Sequence record: SRR22947727_1135
Reading direction: 5' to 3' (one strand)
Length of the DNA stretch: 41,764 nt
This document shows, piece by piece, positions 3,147 to 36,294 of this stretch. The position numbers and the translations under genes were made by a program. Under the pieces are notes generated by a model. That model ran no database searches. It saw nothing but the letters and a program-made list of their open reading frames with translations, and had not been told where the DNA came from. Every line of letters begins with the position of its first letter. The stretch's first letter is position 1.

Positions 3147-4511
3147 TTAATCTAAATTTATATCAATCTCTGGACAAATGCGAGATAGTTCTGAAATAAA
3201 TTCATCCTGAATTCGATTCATTGCTTCAAATGAATCGCCTTCAAATCTCAATACAAGTTTGGGTGTTGTATTGGATGCTCTTAAAAGACCCCAGCCATCA
3301 TCAAAATTAACTCTTAATCCATCTAGGGTTATTTTCTCTCCATTTAATCGTGATTCACTTATAAACTTTTTAACTATCTCAAATTTATTTTCATCTGTTA
3401 CATTAATATTTAACTCTGGTGTTGAGAAAGAGTTAGGAAATCTTGAAAATAAATCTGAGATTGAATCATCTGATTTAACTAAAATTTCAGCAGCTCTTAC
3501 TGCAGAATAGGGACCGTCATCGAAGCCATACCATTTGTCATTAAAAAATATATGACCGCTCATTTCCCCGCCTAGTAGTGCATTATTTTTTTTGATTGCA
3601 TTTTTAATATGAAAGTGACCTGTTGGAGACATAATAGGATCTCCGCCATTTTTAGATATTATATTTTCTAGATGATTAGAGCACTTAACATCAAAGACTA
3701 TCCCGCCTTTTTTTTCTTTTAATATATCTTCAGAAAATAACATCATTTGCTTATCTGGAAATATCATCTCACCTTTGTTAGTAATAAGCCCGACTCTATC
3801 CCCATCTCCATCAAATGCAAAACCAATATCTGCATTTTGTTTTTTAACCTCTGAAATAATATCTTGGAGATTTTCTAGCTTTCCAGGATCAGGATGATGA
3901 TTTGGAAAATTTCCATCTACATCACTATAAAGCTCAATCACTTCACATCCCAGCTTCTTAAATAAGTCTGGAGCGACATGTCCTGCAACTCCATTTCCAC
4001 TATCTAGAACAACTTTTAAATTACTTAAATCCTCTTCAACACTGTCAATAACTTCTTTTATGTATGTATCTTTTATGTCACTGTATGTTATTTGTCCTCG
4101 CATGGAAGTAGTTAATTCTTTCCCATCTTTAATAAGCGTTAAAATTTCATTACCAGAAACTGAACTATTATTGATAACCATCTTTATGCCGTTGTAATTT
4201 TTAGGATTATGGCTTCCAGTAATCATTATTCCGCTTTTTGATTTTTCTTTCTTTGCAGCAAAATACAACATTGGGCTGGTGGCTAGTCCGATGCAATTCA
4301 CGTCTATACCGCAATTTAATATAGCTTCACAGAAGTTGGTAAGCAGAGGTTCCCCAGATAGCCTTCCATCTCTAGCAACAGCAATTGAATCAACCCCTTC
4401 TGATTTACATTTTTTTGCTATGCCAATAGCTATATCCTTCATAACTAACTCGTTTATTTCTTCAGGATAAGTGCCTCTAATATCATTTTCTCTAAATATT
4501 GTTTCTTGCAT
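3147..4511 (-). CDS. algC: Phosphomannomutase/phosphoglucomutase (AlgC type)
   Basis: FRENDIRG, catalytic TGSHNP, metal loop FDGDGDR, sugar loop GEMSGH, LRASNT. Confidence 0.93.
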   Translation of the reverse strand: MQETIFRENDIRGTYPEEINELVMKDIAIGIAKKCKSEGVDSIAVARDGRLSGEPLLTNFCEAILNCGIDVNCIGLATSPMLYFAAKKEKSKSGIMITGSHNPKNYNGIKMVINNSSVSGNEILTLIKDGKELTTSMRGQITYSDIKDTYIKEVIDSVEEDLSNLKVVLDSGNGVAGHVAPDLFKKLGCEVIELYSDVDGNFPNHHPDPGKLENLQDIISEVKKQNADIGFAFDGDGDRVGLITNKGEMIFPDKQMMLFSEDILKEKKGGIVFDVKCSNHLENIISKNGGDPIMSPTGHFHIKNAIKKNNALLGGEMSGHIFFNDKWYGFDDGPYSAVRAAEILVKSDDSISDLFSRFPNSFSTPELNINVTDENKFEIVKKFISESRLNGEKITLDGLRVNFDDGWGLLRASNTTPKLVLRFEGDSFEAMNRIQDEFISELSRICPEIDINLD

Positions 4512-4580: not shown

Positions 4581-5504
4581 ATGTTTGCAAACACTGATTT
4601 AAAATATATATGGAAGAATGGTTCTTATGAAAAATGGGAAGATAGTTCTGTTCATATTCTCTCTCATACAGTGCATTATGGAACAGGTGTTTTCGAGGGA
4701 GTCAGAGCATATGAAACCAATGCTGGAGCAGCAATATTTAGGTTAAATGATCACACAGAAAGGTTATTTGATGCTGCTAGCAAGATTGGAATAAAAATTC
4801 CTTATTCCATAGAAGAGCTAAATCAAGTTCAGAAAGATATATTTTTAAAAAATAATCTATTAGAAGGGTATCTTAGACCTATAGTTTTTCTCGGAAGTGA
4901 ATCTCTGGGCCTTAGAGCAAAAAATTTATCTGTCAATGTTGCTGTTGCTGCATGGGAATGGCCATCCTATATGAGTCCAGAGTCGAAGAAAAATGGTATT
5001 GCAATTATAAAGTCATCCTATGAGCAATACAGCAATCCACTTCATTCGGGATATAAAATTATAGGAACTTATATCAATTCCACCATGGCTCTTCATGAGG
5101 CTATTGAAAAAGGCGCAGATGAAGCTTTGCTATTGGATAAAAATGGATTTATTTCAGAAGGCAGTGGTGAAAATATATTTTTAGTTAATGAAAAGACCAT
5201 AAGCACACCTAAAACAGACCATTGTTTGAATGGAATTACAAGACAGTCAGTTATTCAGATAGCTCAAGATTTTGGTTTTGATGTAATTGAAAGAGATATC
5301 TCTTATGATGAATTAATCGCTAGTGATGAGGTGTTTTTTTCCGGCACTGCAGTAGAAATAACACCAATTTCAAAGATTGATGAAACTATAGTTGGCTCTG
5401 GATCAATTGGGCCCGTTACTGAAAAACTTCAAACCGCTTATGCTGATATAGTATCTGGTCGTAACGATCAATACAGAAACTGGTTAAGCATAGTTTCTGA
5501 ATAA
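4581..5504 (+). CDS. ilvE: Branched-chain amino acid aminotransferase
   Basis: HYGTGVFEGVRAY, YLRP, EGSGENIF, LNGITR, GTAVEITP class IV aminotransferase motifs. Confidence 0.94.
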   Translation: MFANTDLKYIWKNGSYEKWEDSSVHILSHTVHYGTGVFEGVRAYETNAGAAIFRLNDHTERLFDAASKIGIKIPYSIEELNQVQKDIFLKNNLLEGYLRPIVFLGSESLGLRAKNLSVNVAVAAWEWPSYMSPESKKNGIAIIKSSYEQYSNPLHSGYKIIGTYINSTMALHEAIEKGADEALLLDKNGFISEGSGENIFLVNEKTISTPKTDHCLNGITRQSVIQIAQDFGFDVIERDISYDELIASDEVFFSGTAVEITPISKIDETIVGSGSIGPVTEKLQTAYADIVSGRNDQYRNWLSIVSE

Positions 5505-5509
5505 ATATT

Positions 5510-6763
5510 TTGCAAAAGCTTAAAATAGCAATTCTAAGTTATAGAAGTGCTCCTTTTGGAGGAGGCCAGGGTATTTATATTCGCGATATCTCAAGAGCAC
5601 TTTCAGTTATGGGACACACAGTTGATGTAATTTCCGGCCCTCCATATCCAAATCTGGTTTGTGAAATCAACCTTATAAAACTACCAGGACTGGACTTATT
5701 TCAGACATTTTCTTTCAAAGAAAGACTGAAAATTTTTTACAACAAAAAAAACAAAAAATTAATAGATTTTTATGAGTTTATCTCTGTTTTTTTTGGTGGC
5801 TTCCCTGAGATGAGAACTTTTGGTTACAGGGCTAATAAATTTTTAAAATTATCTTCTGATTATGATGTCGTCATAGACAATCAATCATTAAGTTATGGAA
5901 TATTAGAAATACAAAAAAGACTTCCATTCATTGAAATTATTCACCACCCTATATCAAAGGACTATAAGTTTGAATTAGAAACAGCTAGCGGTTTTTTATA
6001 TAAATTTTCAAGGCATAGATGGTATTCATTTTTAAAAATGCAAAAGAGAGTTGCAAAAGATATTAATAATATTGTTACACCATCTAAAAACTCCTTAAAG
6101 GACATAAGTGTTGATTTTAATGTTAATCAAAAGAATATTACTGTTATAAATAATGGACTAGATATAAATACATTTATTCCCTATAAAAACATTAAAAGAG
6201 ACCCTTTTAGGCTAATAACTACAGCAAGTGCTGATGTTGCATTAAAAGGCTTAGATTACTCTTTAAAATCTCTAGCTATTCTTTCAAAAACTTTTCCTGA
6301 AATATCTCTTTTAGTTATTGGGCAATTGAAAAAAGATGGTCATACTTCAAGGTTAATTGAAGAGCTTGGTATCGGGGATAGGATTATATTTAAAACAGGG
6401 CTTACTAAAGAAGAAATTGCCAAAGAATATGCATCAAGTTCTGTTGCCATAGTCAGCTCATTATATGAAGGATTTGGCTATCCTGTTATTGAGGCAATGA
6501 GCTGTGAAGTTCCTCTTGTTGCTACTAATACCTCCTCAATACCAGAATTAGTAGGTGATTTTGCAACCTTAATTCCTCCTATGAACGAAAATGACCTGTC
6601 AGAAGCCATCAAAAATATTCTAACCAATTTTAAAAAATATGAAAAAATTGCAGAAAGTGGGAGACACCATATAATTGAGAACTTTAATTGGTTAAAAATA
6701 ACTCAAGAGTATGAAGATATGATCTACAAGACAATTCAGGATTTTAATAATGTTAACCTTTAA
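5510..6763 (+). CDS. GT4 glycosyltransferase, ManT-like (putative alpha-mannosyltransferase)
   Basis: GT4 signature YEGFGYPVIEAM; N-terminus IAILSYRS..GGGQGIYIRDISRAL..GHTVDVISGPPYP resembles the actinobacterial MMP-cluster glycosyltransferase (recalled). TTG start. Confidence 0.85.
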   Translation: MQKLKIAILSYRSAPFGGGQGIYIRDISRALSVMGHTVDVISGPPYPNLVCEINLIKLPGLDLFQTFSFKERLKIFYNKKNKKLIDFYEFISVFFGGFPEMRTFGYRANKFLKLSSDYDVVIDNQSLSYGILEIQKRLPFIEIIHHPISKDYKFELETASGFLYKFSRHRWYSFLKMQKRVAKDINNIVTPSKNSLKDISVDFNVNQKNITVINNGLDINTFIPYKNIKRDPFRLITTASADVALKGLDYSLKSLAILSKTFPEISLLVIGQLKKDGHTSRLIEELGIGDRIIFKTGLTKEEIAKEYASSSVAIVSSLYEGFGYPVIEAMSCEVPLVATNTSSIPELVGDFATLIPPMNENDLSEAIKNILTNFKKYEKIAESGRHHIIENFNWLKITQEYEDMIYKTIQDFNNVNL

Positions 6764-7457
6764 TTTTTCAAAAATTAAATTAGATAATCCCGATGGTGTT
6801 ATGCTTGATTTAGGGTGTGGTGAGGGCAGGCATATATTTGGCGCAATGGAGTCATTTCCCAATATGCAATGTGTTGGTCTAGATCCTCATTTAGAATCAT
6901 TAGACAAATCATTAGAAGGTCTTGAATTTTTTGAGTCAATATCAAATAAAAAGACAACTTTTTTAAGTGGATCAGCATACAAACTACCTTTTCATAATAA
7001 TACCTTTGACCTAGTTATTTGCTCTGAAGTTTTGGAACACCTCCATAATTATAAAGAAGCCATTGATGAAATTAGCAGAGTGCTTAAACCAGGCGGTAAA
7101 TTTTTAGCAAGTGTTCCAGCAGAATTCCCAGAAAAAGTTTGCTGGGCCTTGTCTAAAGAGTATCAAAATCAGCCAGGGGGACATTTAAGAATTTTTAAAA
7201 AGAAAGCATTATTGAAAGATATATCTTCAAGAGGTTTTGTTTATCTTGATTCTGAAAGATTCCATTCAATTCATTCGGCATACTGGTGGCTAAGATGTAT
7301 GTTTTGGAAAAATCAAGATACCAATCTATTAGTTAGTTGGTATAAAAAATTGCTTGAAACTCATATTTTAAAAAAACCAGCCTGGATAGATTTCATTGAT
7401 AGATTATTTAATCCAGTCTTGGGTAAAAGCATTGCCTTTTATTTTGAAAAAAAATGA
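6750..7457 (+). CDS. Class I SAM-dependent methyltransferase (putative sugar 3-O-methyltransferase, MeT3-like)
   Basis: LDLGCGEGRH motif I, LPF..NTFDLVICSEVLEH, RVLKPGG, plus subfamily-specific GGHLRIF, HSAYWWLRC and NPVLGKSIAFYF. Confidence 0.85.
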   Translation: MLTFNFSKIKLDNPDGVMLDLGCGEGRHIFGAMESFPNMQCVGLDPHLESLDKSLEGLEFFESISNKKTTFLSGSAYKLPFHNNTFDLVICSEVLEHLHNYKEAIDEISRVLKPGGKFLASVPAEFPEKVCWALSKEYQNQPGGHLRIFKKKALLKDISSRGFVYLDSERFHSIHSAYWWLRCMFWKNQDTNLLVSWYKKLLETHILKKPAWIDFIDRLFNPVLGKSIAFYFEKK

Positions 7458-8443
7458 ATTGGCTTCATGAAAAAGATAAGTTTGAAGAATCCAAAAACTG
7501 GATCATCAAAAACCAATCATTAGATGGTTATATTTCTTGGGATGAAAAGGGTAAATGCGATCCATGGGATCATTGTGAGTGTTTAATTGCTTTAAGCATA
7601 TACAAAGAGTGGGATGCATTTTGGCTAGGAGTCCAGTGGTTTTTTGATAATATTAATAATGAGGGTCTGATTTATGCAGAATTCCAAAAAGGAAAACCTT
7701 CAAAAAAACACTTTGAAAGCCACCATGCTCCTTATATCATCTTGCCATTGATCCAGGCATCACTTATAGATAAAAAGCAGGACTATCATAAAGTCCTTAA
7801 CCAAACACAGCTTGATAAATTAAACAAAATTTTTGAAGCGCTTAAGAATTTTCAAGATAAGGATGGTTTTTATTATTGGGCAAAAAATGATGATGGATAC
7901 TCTGATAATTCGCTTATTACAGCCACAATGTCCATTTATTTATCAATTACGGCAAAAGAATCATTGGCCCCTAATTTAATAACAAACTTATGGGATAAAA
8001 AATTTGATCGAGATGGTGTTGATAGATCAAGATTTTCAATGGATTTTTACTATCCATATTTGGCGGGCATTAAAAATAATAAATCTGAATTTCTAAAATC
8101 GTTAGAAAGTTTTTACGTTAAAGGACTTGGCATAAAGTGTGTTAAAGAGGAGCCATGGGTTACGGTAGCTGAAAGTTGTGAGTGTGTAATAGCAGCACTG
8201 GTTCATGAAAATATACAAATAGCAGAAGATATATTTAATGATATTCAGCAATTCCAAGATTCAGAAGGAATTTTTCCGACTGGTTATCAGTATGATTTAA
8301 AAATATTTTGGCCAGAAGAGAAATCAACATGGACAAATGCAGCAGTAATTATTGCTGCGCATGCTCTGACTTGCAAAATAAATACTGATTCAGTTGAAAA
8401 AAATGTATTTTTAGAATTATGTAATTTTTTTAAGAGCAACTAA
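7454..8443 (+). CDS. (alpha/alpha)-barrel protein, usually annotated 'prenyltransferase-like'; MmpH-like glycoside hydrolase candidate
   Basis: Motifs DPWDHCECLIAL, RFSMDFYYPYLAG, PWVTVAESCE, WPEEKSTWTNAAVI; ATGA overlap with the upstream methyltransferase. Confidence 0.7.
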   Translation: MNWLHEKDKFEESKNWIIKNQSLDGYISWDEKGKCDPWDHCECLIALSIYKEWDAFWLGVQWFFDNINNEGLIYAEFQKGKPSKKHFESHHAPYIILPLIQASLIDKKQDYHKVLNQTQLDKLNKIFEALKNFQDKDGFYYWAKNDDGYSDNSLITATMSIYLSITAKESLAPNLITNLWDKKFDRDGVDRSRFSMDFYYPYLAGIKNNKSEFLKSLESFYVKGLGIKCVKEEPWVTVAESCECVIAALVHENIQIAEDIFNDIQQFQDSEGIFPTGYQYDLKIFWPEEKSTWTNAAVIIAAHALTCKINTDSVEKNVFLELCNFFKSN

Positions 8444-9031
8444 ACTATTAACTCTTTTTACTAATTTAAAACCTTCTGTCATAGCTTTTTCATATATTTC
8501 TCTTGGTGCCTGACCGCCCTCTAATTCAGAATCATAAATATCATGAATTGAAAGAATTCCACCAGTTCGTATTTTGTTTTTCCATGATTCGTAATCATTT
8601 CTAGCAGATTCAAATGTATGACTCCCATCTATAAATAGAAAATCTAATTCACTGTTAATTTTTTTTGAGGCTGACTTTGAATTATCTACAATTGCCTTTA
8701 TATGGGAATTTAGTTTATATTTTGCAATATTTTTAGTTAATGTTGGAAGTGTATCAACTCTATTATTTTTGTAATCATACTCTTCCGGGTCAAAGTATTC
8801 TTCCCCAAACTGTTGCTCTTCTGAACCCCTGTGATGATCGATGGTCACAAGATAAGTTCCATTTTCTTTGCATGCTTGGCCAATGTAGCAAGCAGATTTG
8901 CCACAATATGATCCAATTTCAACAGCGAAACTTTTTGTACAGTATTGTTTTGCCATTTCATACAAAAGAATCCCCTCTTCATGAGCTAAGAAACCTTTAA
9001 TCGTATCAAATTCTTTTAAAAAATTAGACAT
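8417..9031 (-). CDS. Class I SAM-dependent methyltransferase (Methyltransf_24 type; MeT1-like 1-O-methyltransferase candidate)
   Basis: KGFL..EEG, VEIGSYCGKS, TIDHHRGSEEQQ, FLFIDGSH, IHDIY, GGQAPREIY. ATG at 9031 preferred over TTG at 9049 because it gives only an 8-nt overlap with lpxL. Confidence 0.85.
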   Translation of the reverse strand: MSNFLKEFDTIKGFLAHEEGILLYEMAKQYCTKSFAVEIGSYCGKSACYIGQACKENGTYLVTIDHHRGSEEQQFGEEYFDPEEYDYKNNRVDTLPTLTKNIAKYKLNSHIKAIVDNSKSASKKINSELDFLFIDGSHTFESARNDYESWKNKIRTGGILSIHDIYDSELEGGQAPREIYEKAMTEGFKLVKRVNSLVALKKIT

Positions 9032-9896
9032 AAAAACTTTCTTTTCCAAGAGTTGATTTAAATCTTCTATGCTGCCATAAATATTCTTCTGGATTTAGTT
9101 TTATTTTATTTTCCATATATAGGTTTAAATCTTTTGAAAAGTTAATTTGACTAGATTGATCTAAAAAAATCTGTTCAACTTCAAGAATATATTTATCATT
9201 CTCCATAAAACTATTAACAAAGAAAGTTTTGCATTTAGTGCTTTTAATAATTTTTTGAGGAGCAGAGATTGTTGCGGCAGGATGATTAAAAAAATTAACA
9301 ATATCAGATTGACTTAGTCCGTAATCTTGATCTGTTGCATAAAGAACAGTTTTTCCATTCTTAAGCCATCTTATAAATTTTAAAGGGTTATTTCTATCAC
9401 AAGTATCTTTAACACTTTTTAATCGCCCTTTATTTTGTATTGAATCAAATGAATCAGAGTTATGAACTCTTTCAACACCATATATTTCTGCATTCATGCC
9501 AAGCAGTCTTGCATCAAGCTCAAGGTGAAGGGAGTGTTTAAAAAATAACAATATGCCGTTGTTATTTTTTTGTTCTTCTAAAAGGTTCTCTAGGCCTCTA
9601 ATCTCATAACTAATTAGCTTATTAATTCTTTTATCAGACCAAAACCATGAAATACCTGAATCAAAAATAATTTTTGTTGATGCAATAACATTTAACTTGT
9701 GCAATTTTTTTCTTTCTTCTTGGGAGAGTTTTGGAAAACATAACTCGATATTCTTTTGACTAATTTTGTTTCTTTTAATTGGCATAAGATATATTAAATT
9801 CCCAAAAAAATAGACCAATCCTTTATGCATGGGTCTAGGAAAAAGCAAAAGAAGCTTCCAGAGAATTACAAGAAGTGATAATAAGATTCTATTCAT
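9024..9896 (-). CDS. lpxL: Lipid A biosynthesis acyltransferase (LpxL/HtrB family)
   Basis: KNIELCFP, HxxxxE-type FKHSLHLE, TDQDYG, PEEYLWQHRRFK; divergent from waaA. Confidence 0.88.
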   Translation of the reverse strand: MNRILLSLLVILWKLLLLFPRPMHKGLVYFFGNLIYLMPIKRNKISQKNIELCFPKLSQEERKKLHKLNVIASTKIIFDSGISWFWSDKRINKLISYEIRGLENLLEEQKNNNGILLFFKHSLHLELDARLLGMNAEIYGVERVHNSDSFDSIQNKGRLKSVKDTCDRNNPLKFIRWLKNGKTVLYATDQDYGLSQSDIVNFFNHPAATISAPQKIIKSTKCKTFFVNSFMENDKYILEVEQIFLDQSSQINFSKDLNLYMENKIKLNPEEYLWQHRRFKSTLGKESFYV

Positions 9897-9943: not shown

Positions 9944-11531
<1,588 letters not shown>

Positions 11532-31011: not shown

Positions 31012-31659
31012 TTATACGTTGTGCTTTTTACGCAAAGTTTCAAAAAGCTTCCTATTCATAGGGGTTGATGGCGATTTACTATCTGCAAGAAGTTCAATTT
31101 TAAACTCAGTTCCATTTAAGGCCTTAACCTTAAACTTGTTGAATATTTTTTTAAATGAAAAAAATAATTCTTTGCTATCTCTTTCATCTAAAAAATTCCA
31201 ACCAATTTTCTTGCCTGCAAAGTAAACAATTGGATGGCTCCACGGATATTCAGCTCTTGGAGAAAAAGACTTCCTTGCTTCAATATAGGCCTCTTCAACT
31301 GATGGAAAGCCATCATGACTATTAATTTCTGAACAAGCCTTAACTAGGTCTGTTAAAGTTGGTAAGTATGACTGTGAGCCAATAACACTTTCGATAGCTT
31401 TTAATATTGTTTCAGCTGAGAAAGATTTTAAACTCATAGCCCATAGCTTCTTACCCTCATTTAACCTGTCATCAGTACCAAAGACTTTGTAAAACTGATA
31501 ATGATAAGCTAATTCAAGCTTTAAAAATAAACCATCTATAGATTCAATAAATTCTTCTTTATTCGAATTTAATTTCTGATGCCCAAGAGGAGTCACTCTT
31601 TCTTGATGAGAAATCTTTTGAATATTTTCCTGGTTCAATATGTTTTTTATTTTCTTCAT
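31012..31659 (-). CDS. Replication protein P family / DopE-like helicase loader
   Basis: LF..LELAY..QF...KKLW, YLPTL, GFPSVEEAYIEA, WSHPIVYFAG motifs of lambda P-like proteins; downstream of a DnaT-domain gene. Confidence 0.78.
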   Translation of the reverse strand: MKKIKNILNQENIQKISHQERVTPLGHQKLNSNKEEFIESIDGLFLKLELAYHYQFYKVFGTDDRLNEGKKLWAMSLKSFSAETILKAIESVIGSQSYLPTLTDLVKACSEINSHDGFPSVEEAYIEARKSFSPRAEYPWSHPIVYFAGKKIGWNFLDERDSKELFFSFKKIFNKFKVKALNGTEFKIELLADSKSPSTPMNRKLFETLRKKHNV

Positions 31660-32359
31660 GATCTATTCTTTGGTTTCCTATATGCCTTCTTTTTACATGC
31701 TCTATAAATTTAGAGTTCCATGTAGAAAAGGCTGAACCATTTTCTTTCCAATATAGTATAAACTCACTTAAATACTTTAATGATGATTCTTTTGAAATAT
31801 CAGACAATTCAAGAATATCATAGACGTCTTCGCTTGGAACCCAGTCTGAATTAATTGAAAAGGGTAATCCTTTATTAGAGCTTTGATCTTTAGCCCACTC
31901 TCTTCTTATGTAGTCAATAAAAGATGTATTCCAATTATTCCTTTCTTGACCTCGTTCTTGCCAATATAACTTAAATTCTCTAAGTTTATTTTGATGAAAC
32001 TCCTCTGAGACTTGACTCATTTTTAATATTTCTAATGCTTCTTTTGAGGGCATCCAGCTTGGATCAATTTTTGTTTTATAAGTATTATTTTGAGCTGGAG
32101 ATTGAATGCGGTAATTTGAAGTTTTTTTTACATTATCGGAATTAGTAATGAGTTTATAGCCGACTAATTTATTAATACTTAATTCAGCAATATTAGAATC
32201 TATAAAAGGGAATTCTTTTTTAATTAAGAAAACAAGATCATTAATGTTGTTAGAGAAATTGATTCTTTTTGATTTACAGAACTCAAGAATAATTGCTGAC
32301 TCGATTCCAAGTGTTTCTGCAACCTCTTTAGAAAATGAGATATTATCATTATCTTTCAA
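31559..32359 (-). CDS. DnaT-like ssDNA-binding domain protein / DopC-like (lambda O-derived)
   Basis: N-terminal FSKEVAETLGIESAIIL and two W.PS...EF.LYW.E.G....WN..F repeats. TTG at 32359 lies 5 nt after the aroG stop and downstream of GGAGAGG; the longer ORF overlaps aroG. Confidence 0.75.
   Translation of the reverse strand: MKDNDNISFSKEVAETLGIESAIILEFCKSKRINFSNNINDLVFLIKKEFPFIDSNIAELSINKLVGYKLITNSDNVKKTSNYRIQSPAQNNTYKTKIDPSWMPSKEALEILKMSQVSEEFHQNKLREFKLYWQERGQERNNWNTSFIDYIRREWAKDQSSNKGLPFSINSDWVPSEDVYDILELSDISKESSLKYLSEFILYWKENGSAFSTWNSKFIEHVKRRHIGNQRIDHEENKKHIEPGKYSKDFSSRKSDSSWASEIKFE
31682..32068 (-). repeat. Internal protein-level tandem duplication (two ~58-aa DnaT-like domains, 71-aa period)
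   Basis: IDPSWMPSKEALEILKMSQVSEEFHQNKLREFKLYWQERGQERNNWNTSFIDYIRREW versus INSDWVPSEDVYDILELSDISKESSLKYLSEFILYWKENGSAFSTWNSKFIEHVKRRH. Confidence 0.85.
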
Positions 32360-32363
32360 TCTA

Positions 32364-33413
32364 CTATGAACCTCTCCTTTTCTCAACAGCATTGCTAAGG
32401 TTTTGTAGGCATGAGACTGTATCTTCCCAGCCAATACAGGCATCAGTAATGCTTTGACCATATGTAAGATTGTCAGAAATTTTTTGATTACCTTCAACTA
32501 AGTGACTTTCTATCATAACTCCCTTAATACTTTTGTTACCATTGGATATCTGTTCGGATATTTCTTCTATAACAGGAAGCTGTCTTTTGTATTGTTTTTG
32601 ACTATTACCGTGGCTAGCATCAATCATAATAGATTCATTAACTTCAGCCTCTCGCAAAGCAGTCAATGTTTCATTTATTGAATCTTTATCATAATTCGGC
32701 TCTTTACCACCCCTAAGAATTATATGCGTATCATTATTTCCAGCAGTCTTTAGCATGGCAATATCAGATTCTTTTGTTGCTCCAAGAAATACATGAGAAT
32801 GATTTGCTGCTTGGATACCATCAATAGCTGCTTTCAATCCTCCATTTGTAGCATTTTTAATTCCAATAGGGCATGACAATCCTGATGCTAATTCTCTATG
32901 GATTTGACTTTCTGCTGTTCTAGCACCAATTGCACCCCATGAAATAATATCCGTAATATATTGAGGAGAAATGGGATCTAAAAATTCAGTACCAGCAGGT
33001 AGATTTAAGTTTGCTAAATCTATCAATAGTTTTCTAGCCATCTCGACACCTTTTCCAATCTGATAGCTTTCATTTAAATCAGGATCATTAATTAATCCTT
33101 TCCAACCAACAGTAGTTCTAGGTTTTTCAAAGTAAACTCTCATTACAATCAATAGGTTTTCTTTAAAGCGAGTGTTTTGTTCTATTAGTTTTTTTCCATA
33201 TTCAATAGCGCTTTCAGGGTCGTGAATTGAGCATGGGCCTACAACAACAAGTACACGATCATCTTTGTCATGAAGAATTTGACTTATTTCTTGCCTTGTT
33301 CCGTAAACAAGTTTTGAAATATTATCATTGATGGGGTGTTTATTAACTAGCTCATATGGAGCTGGAACTTTTTGCCTATCAATAATTCTTGTATTATCGG
33401 TTGAGTAATTCAT
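32364..33413 (-). CDS. aroG: Class I DAHP synthase (AroF/G/H family)
   Basis: VGPCSIHD, RVYFEKPRTTVGWKG, IGARTAESQIHRE, DASHGNS, YGQSITDAC. Confidence 0.95.
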   Translation of the reverse strand: MNYSTDNTRIIDRQKVPAPYELVNKHPINDNISKLVYGTRQEISQILHDKDDRVLVVVGPCSIHDPESAIEYGKKLIEQNTRFKENLLIVMRVYFEKPRTTVGWKGLINDPDLNESYQIGKGVEMARKLLIDLANLNLPAGTEFLDPISPQYITDIISWGAIGARTAESQIHRELASGLSCPIGIKNATNGGLKAAIDGIQAANHSHVFLGATKESDIAMLKTAGNNDTHIILRGGKEPNYDKDSINETLTALREAEVNESIMIDASHGNSQKQYKRQLPVIEEISEQISNGNKSIKGVMIESHLVEGNQKISDNLTYGQSITDACIGWEDTVSCLQNLSNAVEKRRGS

Positions 33414-34973: not shown

Positions 34974-35699
34974 ATGTCAGAAAGGCTTCAAAAATTTTTA
35001 GCCCAAGCAGGTATTGGATCAAGAAGAGGTTGCGAAAATTTTATTAAGGAAGGAAGGGTTACAGTAAATGGAAGTGTAGCAAAACTTGGTACAAAAGTTT
35101 CTAATGAAGATGTAGTTGAGTTTGATAATAAAGTTATTGAACTAAAAGAGGTAGATATCAAGCTTATCGCTCTTAATAAACCAGAAGGCGTTTTATCATC
35201 AACAGCTAGAGAGAAAAAAATTCCAATCGTTTATGATTACTTGCCTAACTATGCTAATCAAAGAAATTGGATATCAATAGGCAGACTTGATATCAACACC
35301 TCAGGGCTTATGTTATTTACTAATGATGGAAGCTTTGCAAACTATTGTATGCATCCATCTAACACAATCGATAGAGAGTATTTGGTTAGAGCGAGAGGCA
35401 ATTTTTCAATTGAGAAAAAAAATGAAATGCTGAAGGGTATTATTATTGATGGTGAAAAGCATCAGTTTACCGATGTGGTAGAAGGAGAAAAAGTCGGAAG
35501 CAATCAATGGTTTTCAGTATGCTTGGTAAGCGGTAAAAATAGGGAAGTTAGAAAGATTTTTCAATCTCTAGATCTTGAGGTGAGTAGACTAAAGAGAACT
35601 CGGTTTGGTCCTATCTTTTTACCTTCAACTTTAAAAAAAGGTAAAACAATAGAGTTAACTCAAAAGGAAATAAGTGAATTAAAAAATTATGGCAAATGA
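34974..35699 (+). CDS. rluB: 23S rRNA pseudouridine synthase (RluB/RsuA family)
   Basis: S4 domain ERLQKFLAQAGIGSRR, GRLDINTSGL, GKNREVRK; scpAB-rluB context. Confidence 0.9.
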   Translation: MSERLQKFLAQAGIGSRRGCENFIKEGRVTVNGSVAKLGTKVSNEDVVEFDNKVIELKEVDIKLIALNKPEGVLSSTAREKKIPIVYDYLPNYANQRNWISIGRLDINTSGLMLFTNDGSFANYCMHPSNTIDREYLVRARGNFSIEKKNEMLKGIIIDGEKHQFTDVVEGEKVGSNQWFSVCLVSGKNREVRKIFQSLDLEVSRLKRTRFGPIFLPSTLKKGKTIELTQKEISELKNYGK

Positions 35700-36294
35700 T
35701 TCCAAATCAACACAAGTCCATAAACTCTTTCTAAAAATTTCTAAACAAAATAAACATAAAGAATTTTATAACTATTTAAAGACGACTAAAATAATAAATA
35801 TTGATTCACGTCTTAATAAAGACATCAGCCTTCAATTTTTTATTATTAAAACAATAATTGGGCAACAGGTTTCAGTAAGCGCAGCAAGATCTATTTGGAA
35901 AAAAGTTGAGATTTTTTTAGAAAATAAAAATAATAATATTTCATTAAAGGCTTTGGCTAATTGCGGCCTATCTAGACCAAAAGCAAAATACATACATGGA
36001 GTTATAAATAATGAGGAACTGCAATTAACGTCTAAGAGGACATTACAAACAATGCAAGACCAGGAATTGTCTGAATTTTTTTTAAAAATAAAAGGTATTG
36101 GCCCATGGACTTTGGGCATTATTAAAATGTTTTATTTGGGCCACTCAGATACATACTTAAGTGAAGATCTTGGAGTAAAAAAAGGAGCATTATATTTTTT
36201 TAAGGATAGTAAATATATGGGTGAAGATTATTCACCATATAAAACATATTTATGTCTATATCTATGGCAGAGCCTAAGTACTAATCTTGATTAA
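35689..36294 (+). CDS. alkA: DNA-3-methyladenine glycosylase II family (HhH-GPD)
   Basis: IIGQQVSVSAA, GLSRPKAKYI, IKGIGPWT, EDLGV, PYKTY...YLW. Confidence 0.8.
   Translation: MANDSKSTQVHKLFLKISKQNKHKEFYNYLKTTKIINIDSRLNKDISLQFFIIKTIIGQQVSVSAARSIWKKVEIFLENKNNNISLKALANCGLSRPKAKYIHGVINNEELQLTSKRTLQTMQDQELSEFFLKIKGIGPWTLGIIKMFYLGHSDTYLSEDLGVKKGALYFFKDSKYMGEDYSPYKTYLCLYLWQSLSTNLD

Follow-up and report, generated by a model that had tools for sequence, protein, structure and literature searches.

Mycobacteria produce a 3-O-methylmannose polysaccharide (MMP), a chain of 11-14 alpha-(1->4)-linked 3-O-methylmannoses carrying a 1-O-methyl cap (PMC9883506). The function proposed for MMP is to sequester acyl-CoA, and M. 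smegmatis that has lost it grows more slowly at 15 °C (PMC9883506). In mycobacteria, a cycle has been demonstrated in which the polymer is cut, extended, 3-O-methylated, and capped (PMC9883506). Here, we analyze a 41,764-nucleotide (nt) stretch of DNA from sequence record SRR22947727_1135, hereafter called the window. Comparison of sequences confirms that four adjacent genes in the window are the orthologous counterpart of the actinobacterial MMP cluster manT-pmeT3-mmpH/meT1.

The resemblance to the mycobacterial cluster, known from M. hassiacum and M. smegmatis, extends to all four orthologues, their order and orientation, the proven catalytic residues, and the fold of the MmpH hydrolase. The differences are as follows. 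The window's host is a Gram-negative, low-GC (~32%) marine gammaproteobacterium with a genome of ~1.3 Mb, and its gene set lies between ilvE and lpxL-waaA. The window proteins are 27-39% identical to the M. parascrofulaceum copies, and the MmpH-like protein is shorter (329 amino acids [aa], versus 358 aa for the M. parascrofulaceum open reading frame [ORF] and 373 aa for the 7qsj chain). Residues N101 and F102 of MmpH are both replaced by H, and D293 of ManT is replaced by K. Canonical GDP-mannose pyrophosphorylase (ManC) was not found in the genome nearest to the window.

Other polymethylated glycans offer partial parallels. Acetylated MMP exists in Streptomyces griseus (cited in PMC9883506), which shows that the product extends beyond Mycobacterium and that its decoration is variable. 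Streptomyces loci share the ManT-methyltransferase-MmpH core, with meT1 often several kb off or outside the fetched stretch. The window has no counterpart gene for the S. griseus acetylation, and S. griseus is still an actinobacterial case. Mycobacteria also possess 6-O-methylglucose lipopolysaccharide (MGLP), an intracellular polymethylated alpha-(1->4)-glycan likewise proposed to bind acyl-CoA (PMC9883506). MGLP provides a precedent for a glucose-based version of a polymethylated polysaccharide, but its enzymes are not orthologous to those considered here. The MGLP pathway gene set differs from the MMP enzymes.

Gram-negative mannose glycans bearing O-methyl groups are also known. The E. coli O8/O9a polymannans are methyl-capped. 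The O-antigen of Oligotropha carboxidovorans is an alpha-(1->2) homopolymer of 3-O-methylmannose (cited in PMC9883506). Unlike MMP, these O-antigens are exported, lipid-linked products of ABC-transporter systems that have other linkages and no MmpH or MeT1 counterpart. No export genes of this type are linked to the window's set.

A preliminary description of the window, made from its letters alone, knew of no biochemical account of such a system outside Actinobacteria. We likewise found no report of an MMP cluster or polymer outside Actinobacteria, and none of methylmannose together with SAR86, the marine lineage discussed below, in the literature searched, which excluded subscription journals. 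The published survey of MMP clusters covered actinobacterial genomes only (PMC9883506).

Four orthologues of the MMP enzymes

The preliminary description had assigned each of the four proteins, from sequence motifs, to one member of the mycobacterial pathway. That assignment holds. All of the motifs it quoted (DPWDHCE, WPEEKSTWT, EIGSYCGKS, DHHRGSEEQQ, IDGSH, and GGQAP) are present in the translations, and the best matches are not lipopolysaccharide (LPS) or O-antigen enzymes. Rather, when three of the proteins were compared with all PDB sequences, the top matches were 7qsg, 7qsj, and 6g7d. The manT and pMeT3 genes are supported by reciprocal best matches.

The first gene encodes a family 4 glycosyltransferase (GT4). 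Its top PDB match is M. hassiacum ManT (7qsg, E 2.8e-79), with the runner-up at 5.7e-18. In two whole Mycobacterium genomes, it matches manT at 5e-78, and other GT4 proteins match at 4e-13 or weaker (3.9e-13 for the next). Searched in reverse against three genomes of the window's order, Mycobacterium ManT finds the cluster gene at 1.2e-79, ahead of the next match at 1.6e-7. Thus, ManT is a reciprocal best match between the window, taken together with its nearest genome, and Mycobacterium. Ten ManT residues have been named in M. hassiacum: G15, H142, K240, L291, D293, E313, G314, F315, L317, and E321; K240A and E321A are inactive and E313A is strongly reduced (PMC9883506). Window residues G18, H145, K246, E320, G321, F322, and E328 correspond to ManT G15, H142, K240, E313, G314, F315, and E321, and window L298, mapped through the alignment, corresponds to L291. 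The seven catalytic and donor residues are invariant in 86/86 rows (12 proteobacterial and 74 actinobacterial). We predict that the window GT4 is an alpha-(1->4)-mannosyltransferase that elongates the polymer.

The third gene encodes the MmpH-like protein, whose sole real match among PDB sequences is MmpH itself (7qsj, E 6.5e-30). Structure prediction, a check that the preliminary description had proposed, gave an AlphaFold model with a predicted local distance difference test (pLDDT) score of 92.6 and a predicted template modeling (pTM) score of 0.93. Foldseek places 7qsj first for this model (E 8.3e-22, TM 0.82), followed by other (alpha/alpha)6 enzymes at 4e-7 or weaker. In M. hassiacum, MmpH mutants of D47, D50, and E262 are dead or nearly so, and W49, N101, F102, T163, M215, Y219, E265, and W315 are further residues named (PMC9883506). 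The catalytic trio corresponds to window D36, D39, and E240; window W38, T156, M196, Y200, E243, and W293 correspond to W49, T163, M215, Y219, E265, and W315. Across 93/93 rows (13 proteobacterial and 80 actinobacterial), D47, W49, M215, Y219, E262, and E265 are invariant. The D50 position is D or N in both the actinobacterial and the proteobacterial rows, and is D in the window. The model and these residues point to an (alpha/alpha)6-barrel endo-hydrolase that is predicted to cut the mature polymer into primers.

Among PDB sequences, the only real matches of the MeT1-like protein are the M. hassiacum MeT1 entries 6g7d/6g80/6h40 (E 3.2e-44, residues 15-206). We judged conservation of the MeT1 core at the 56 alignment columns with at least 95% conservation among 66 actinobacterial rows. 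The window protein is identical at 42 of them, including D71-H72-H73, E77-E78, D141, H144, and H169-D170. The protein is predicted to be the 1-O-methyltransferase that caps the reducing end.

The remaining methyltransferase has no solved counterpart among PDB sequences. In two whole Mycobacterium genomes, it finds the MMP-cluster methyltransferase, pMeT3, at 1e-45, with the next match at 1.4e-8. Searching back into three genomes of the window's order gives 8.6e-46, 1.1e-57, and 4.8e-40, and the runners-up reach 1e-4 to 1.6e-5. Of the columns with at least 95% conservation in actinobacteria, the protein keeps 47/68. P0155, a 590-aa protein from the representative library, is a natural fusion of a pMeT3-type methyltransferase with MmpH: its residues 1-237 match the window's pMeT3-like protein over their full length (37% identity, E 2e-49), and its residues 265-576 match MmpH. 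We predict, from these sequence matches, that the pMeT3-like enzyme is the 3-O-methyltransferase of the chain sugars. A 633-aa ORF at locus L023 that appeared to be a second methyltransferase-MmpH fusion was dropped, as the methyltransferase is a separate ORF inside its coordinates.

None of the four proteins contains a hydrophobic segment of transmembrane strength (maximum KD19 at most 1.37, versus 2.0 for LpxL and WaaA). All four are predicted to be soluble and cytoplasmic.

Gene order, distribution, and descent

The arrangement of the genes matches that of the known cluster. Specifically, all three Mycobacterium loci inspected have the order ManT -> MT -> MmpH -> <- MeT1, where MT is the pMeT3-type methyltransferase, and are thus identical to the window, including the convergent meT1. 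The same order and orientation recur in 6/6 newly found Pseudomonadota carriers. A synteny survey, which the preliminary description had called for, supports its assignment of the four proteins. In 73/93 loci, the fetched stretch contains all four genes. The scan of named loci used a narrow, actinobacterial-type alignment, so all 80 named loci come from Actinomycetota by design and have no bearing on phylum range.

SAR86, or Magnimaribacterales, is described as a seawater order of four families with genomes of 0.9-1.8 Mb (PMC11582366). By fit to this published description, we infer that the window comes from this lineage. Its nearest genome (G001, 94% complete) has 71% of sampled words in common with the window and an MmpH that is 99% identical. 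The mmpH gene is present in 38/41 relatives and in 21/21 of those with a completeness of 90% or more. Nearly all matches have an intact ORF, and each of the four families of the order contains carriers (22/25, 6/6, 5/5, and 5/5). The three relatives with no MmpH match are 71-79% complete. Among twelve 15-kb loci from the window's order and four other gammaproteobacterial families, nine hold all four genes; two of the others end at a contig edge and the third has no meT1 within 15 kb. At one locus of a single-contig genome (L028, G019:C1:57000-72000), manT, ilvE, and the phosphomannomutase (PMM) gene appear as many short, frame-shifted pieces. These fragments look like assembly indel errors rather than gene decay, and the neighboring genes are intact in other genomes.

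In an even sample of the class, MmpH occurs in 8/400 genomes, of which four belong to the window's order. In an even sample of the phylum Pseudomonadota, it occurs in 8/401 (~2%), five of them in other classes (profile search, E <= 1e-10). The MmpH family is small, with 495 cluster representatives at E <= 1e-3 among 1.84 billion.

We built an unrooted tree from concatenated ManT, MT, and MmpH, with 38 rows, many of them compositionally skewed, including 20 actinobacterial rows chosen from 80 to cover genera. In this tree, the Actinomycetota (support 100), the window's order (98), and the five Pseudomonadota carriers of other classes (99) each occupy one side of a branch. This split between the Actinomycetota rows and every Pseudomonadota row makes a recent transfer from actinobacteria unlikely. 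The ratio of nonsynonymous to synonymous substitution rates (dN/dS), measured within the genus for three of the four genes, is 0.04-0.19, which indicates purifying selection. Given the intact ORFs, these ratios, the even composition of the window, and the tree groupings, we rejected the reading of the set as a relic or a recent arrival. The preliminary description had argued that retention in so compact a genome suggests a real function, and the presence of mmpH in nearly all relatives, together with the dN/dS values, bears out this retention.

Contigs from marine RNA libraries of four studies match 26-30 of the 30 bins of the stretch at an identity of at least 95%, a result that indicates presence and is not proof of transcription. 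Some contigs bridge manT-MT-mmpH and mmpH/meT1/lpxL; transcript unity, strand, and level cannot be deduced from them, and DNA carry-over is possible.

Locus layout and genomic setting

The coordinates of the four genes and of the neighbors that provide context are collected in Table 1. The Pfam and NCBIfam names of three of the proteins are generic and speak neither for nor against the MMP assignment.

Table 1. The four-gene set and its neighbors in the window
Gene or product	Position	Strand	Remarks
manT-like GT4	5510..6763	+	417 aa, TTG start; Pfam Glycos_transf_1/Glyco_transf_4
pmeT3-like class I S-adenosylmethionine (SAM) methyltransferase	6750..7457	+	235 aa; Pfam Methyltransf_11
mmpH-like protein	7454..8443	+	329 aa; no Pfam or NCBIfam match
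meT1-like	8417..9049	-	Pfam Methyltransf_24; 210 aa from TTG 9049, 204 aa from ATG 9031
lpxL, lipid A late acyltransferase (context)	9024..9896	-	Lip_A_acyltrans 4e-47, TIGR02207 1e-65
waaA, Kdo transferase (context)	9944..11218	+	NF004388 1.3e-104
Phosphomannomutase/phosphoglucomutase, PgmG/AlgC-like (context)	3147..4511	-	Four PGM_PMM domains; NF046027 434 bits, under the cut-off of 600
ilvE, branched-chain aminotransferase (context)	4581..5504	+	NF005146 8e-114, above cut-off

The preliminary description placed four adjacent genes at 5510..9031. The genes are where it placed them, with one correction: the fourth lies on the minus strand, convergent with the others, as it does in Mycobacterium. 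Position 9031 is the first in-frame ATG of this gene, and the TTG start would move the end to 9049. The set is tightly packed. ManT and MT genes overlap by 14 nt, MT and mmpH genes by 4 nt, and the convergent mmpH (+) and meT1 (-) have 27 nt in common (8417-8443). The ilvE gene ends 5 nt before manT on the same strand. On the far side, lpxL is directly upstream of meT1 on the same strand and overlaps it by 8 nt on the minus strand (9024-9031) if meT1 starts at ATG 9031. This overlap suggests translational coupling of the lipid A acyltransferase with the capping methyltransferase. We regard lpxL as a context gene, without implying membership in the four-gene system. The position of lpxL upstream of meT1, codirectional, is kept in loci of all four families, with lpxL the immediate neighbor in two. 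The phosphomannomutase/phosphoglucomutase gene keeps its place beside ilvE and the cluster in three families (f1, f3, and f4) and is a possible supplier of hexose-1-phosphate.

GC content is even across the window (27-37%, and ~32% around the cluster), and its other genes include PBP1A, SlmA-like, glnB, miaA, hflK/C-like, purA, rib genes, glyA, and dxs. Because the surroundings are core housekeeping genes at even GC, the four-gene set lies outside any island. A promoter and terminator scan returned fewer sites than shuffled sequence and was uninformative. Elsewhere in the window, two ORFs of 215 and 201 aa, at 31012-31659 (-) and 35689-36294 (+), have no Pfam match at E <= 1e-6, and a 312-aa ORF at 31559-32497 (-) has two DnaT DNA-binding-domain matches.

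A proposed self-renewing methylated polysaccharide

What could these genes do in a marine gammaproteobacterium? We propose, with a probability of about 65%, that they serve to build and recycle a short, polymethylated alpha-(1->4)-hexose chain that is soluble and cytoplasmic and likely acts as an acyl-chain buffer. Homology points to a chain of 3-O-methylmannose with a methyl-capped reducing end. We infer each element of this proposal: the enzyme activities, the identity of the sugar, its donor, and the physiological role. By analogy with M. hassiacum and M. smegmatis, MmpH would cut the mature chain into defined oligomers. ManT would re-extend these primers by alpha-(1->4) addition from a nucleoside diphosphate (NDP)-sugar, and the pMeT3-like enzyme would 3-O-methylate the added units. 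Finally, MeT1 would methylate the free 1-OH of cap-less fragments. The notion is that, since MmpH fragments would serve as ManT primers, the polymer would "replicate" from its own pieces.

The likely role of such a polymer is to sequester or buffer long acyl chains, in the form of acyl-CoA or fatty acids. SAR86 genomes are reported to be rich in lipases and β-oxidation enzymes, and lipid uptake and β-oxidation are described as central to the carbon metabolism of these bacteria (PMC3358033, PMC11582366). An acyl-chain buffer is plausible in SAR86 for this reason. In another Pseudomonadota carrier, a gene for acyl-CoA thioesterase II (TesB) lies 7 nt upstream of manT (L137:3449-4435), a physiological context that supports an acyl-chain role.

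Several considerations weigh against the proposal of a methylmannose buffer. First, the literature searched contains no measurement of the polymer or of enzyme activity outside Actinobacteria. Second, fatty acids are made by the type II system in Gram-negative bacteria, and the mycobacterial rationale based on fatty acid synthase I (FAS-I) is thus not directly transferable. Third, the cluster is flanked by genes for lipid A, which leaves room for a reading in terms of the envelope. Fourth, in the extra sugar subsite of MmpH, where W38, T156, M196, Y200, and E243 are kept in the window, two positions have changed. N101 is replaced by H90; this position is N in 80/80 actinobacterial rows and H in 10/13 proteobacterial rows. 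F102 is replaced by H91, at a position that is variable in actinobacteria as well. Fifth, ManT D293, for which the analogy with PimA D253 suggests a contact with guanine (PMC9883506), is K300 in the window. The D293 position is D or E in 72/74 actinobacterial rows and variable in the 12 proteobacterial rows. Sixth, a canonical source of the expected sugar donor was not found, as described below.

The sugar donor and alternative chemistries

In mycobacteria, the ManT donor is GDP-mannose (PMC9883506). The canonical, bifunctional GDP-mannose pyrophosphorylase (TIGR01479) was not found in 35/35 genomes of f1, f3, and f4, including the genome nearest to the window; here, a negative means that no N-terminal guanylyltransferase-domain match was better than E 4e-6, which holds for these queries and is no proof of absence. 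Nonetheless, 32 of these 35 genomes have the mmpH gene. Full-length TIGR01479 genes are present in 5/6 genomes of the remaining family, f2, and in 10/10 carriers outside the window's order. Because the canonical enzyme was not found, the donor, and hence the sugar, could differ.

One alternative, then, is that the same machinery carries out other chemistry. Specifically, in the ManC-less families, the ManT-like enzyme would use UDP-glucose, made by GalU, or a non-canonical NDP-mannose, and the product would be a polymethylated glucan or other hexan. We consider this unlikely, although several findings are consistent with it. In five ManC-less genomes, proteins matching PF00483 are GalU (in 4/5), MurU-like, GlmU, and RmlA (in a single genome), besides some matches that are short and weak or only partial. 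One 97%-complete genome (G028) has the cluster, and in it ManC and the cupin-fusion protein described below were not found; GalU and a MurU-like nucleotidyltransferase are its only candidates. A gammaproteobacterial carrier has galU just upstream of manT, codirectional and separated from it by 6 nt (L024:9930-10826). The change of MmpH N101 to H would also fit altered chemistry. However, neither this substitution nor that of ManT D293 tracks ManC presence, and both also occur in ManC carriers. We therefore dropped the two substitutions as a sign of donor change, and D293 in particular carries little weight because it is variable in ManC carriers. Furthermore, all four proteins are clear orthologues of enzymes called highly specific for methylmannosides (PMC9883506), and a gene not found in metagenome-assembled genomes is not proven absent.

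Two candidates could supply NDP-mannose by an undescribed route, which would leave the chain mannose-based. The first is a ~257-aa fusion of a cytidylyltransferase-like domain (PF01467) with a mannose-6-phosphate-isomerase cupin (PF01050), present in 20/35 genomes of f1, f3, and f4. In the genome nearest to the window, the fusion lies ~16 kb past the window's end (L140:5349-6122, corresponding to G001:C1:305348-306121). It stands at the edge of a surface-polysaccharide island with a Wzz-like gene, a CMP-sugar synthetase, and a DegT aminotransferase. In the ESM Atlas, the PF01467-PF01050 architecture is common among marine phage protein clusters. The second candidate is a conserved AmgK-like/MurU-like kinase and transferase pair, found at L119:494-2169 (G001) and L121:1495-3056 (G028). 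The AmgK-like protein scores 89 bits versus a cut-off of 550, and the MurU-like proteins score 214 and 147 versus 250. The pair may belong to peptidoglycan recycling or to an NDP-sugar salvage route, and its sugar specificity is uncertain.

A role in the lipid A-Kdo core is very unlikely. Under this hypothesis, the genes would, for example, attach methylated mannose oligosaccharides to the inner core of the LPS or chaperone the acyl donor of LpxL, instead of making a free cytoplasmic polymer. The idea draws on the neighborhood: meT1 overlaps the end of the codirectional lpxL, waaA is next, and lpxL is upstream of meT1 across the order. Moreover, in an unrelated gammaproteobacterial family, waaA adjoins meT1, and manT is separated from the methyltransferase gene by an MsbA-like ABC gene (L025:8755-10800 and 4986-6245). 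Yet Actinomycetota, which have no LPS, carry the four-gene set in identical order, and it is also found in other Pseudomonadota without lipid A neighbors; the core hypothesis is weakened for these reasons. A dedicated cytoplasmic endo-hydrolase suits recycling of a free polymer rather than core assembly, and no set-specific polymerase, ligase, or flippase gene is conserved beside the cluster. Still more improbable is a catabolic role, in which methylated mannans from other organisms would be taken up and broken down, above all by MmpH. MmpH is a hydrolase, and published descriptions present SAR86 as degrading lipids and polysaccharides (PMC3358033, PMC11582366). However, the other three genes, for a glycosyltransferase and two SAM methyltransferases, are biosynthetic, the proteins lack the hydrophobic segments noted above, and Pfam annotation of the window found no transporter or TonB receptor linked to the set.

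Implications

Until now, MMP has been regarded as particular to mycobacteria and a small number of other actinobacteria. Our analysis places the gene set in a new phylum and a new habitat, where it is a near-core trait of one of the most abundant lineages of the surface ocean. The pathway appears to be old and phylum-spanning, with carriers making up ~2% of sampled Pseudomonadota. Four genes of a ~1.3-Mb genome that would otherwise be called hypothetical thereby gain a concrete predicted function. The proposal also links a polymer thought to buffer acyl-CoA to an organism described as living on lipids and β-oxidation.

A cultured SAR86 strain exists (PMC11582366), and the prediction is therefore directly testable. 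The failure to find the canonical GDP-mannose enzyme poses a sharp biochemical question concerning the donor that is used. We speculate, tentatively and with the odds against us, that f1, f3, and f4 either possess an undescribed route to NDP-mannose or have moved their GT4 to another donor, such as UDP-glucose, to yield a new polymethylated polysaccharide. Either way, the system would be a widespread acyl-handling device, tied to a β-oxidation lifestyle and, via the lpxL-meT1 overlap, to lipid A acylation. If so, polymethylated polysaccharides would represent a widespread bacterial device for handling acyl chains.

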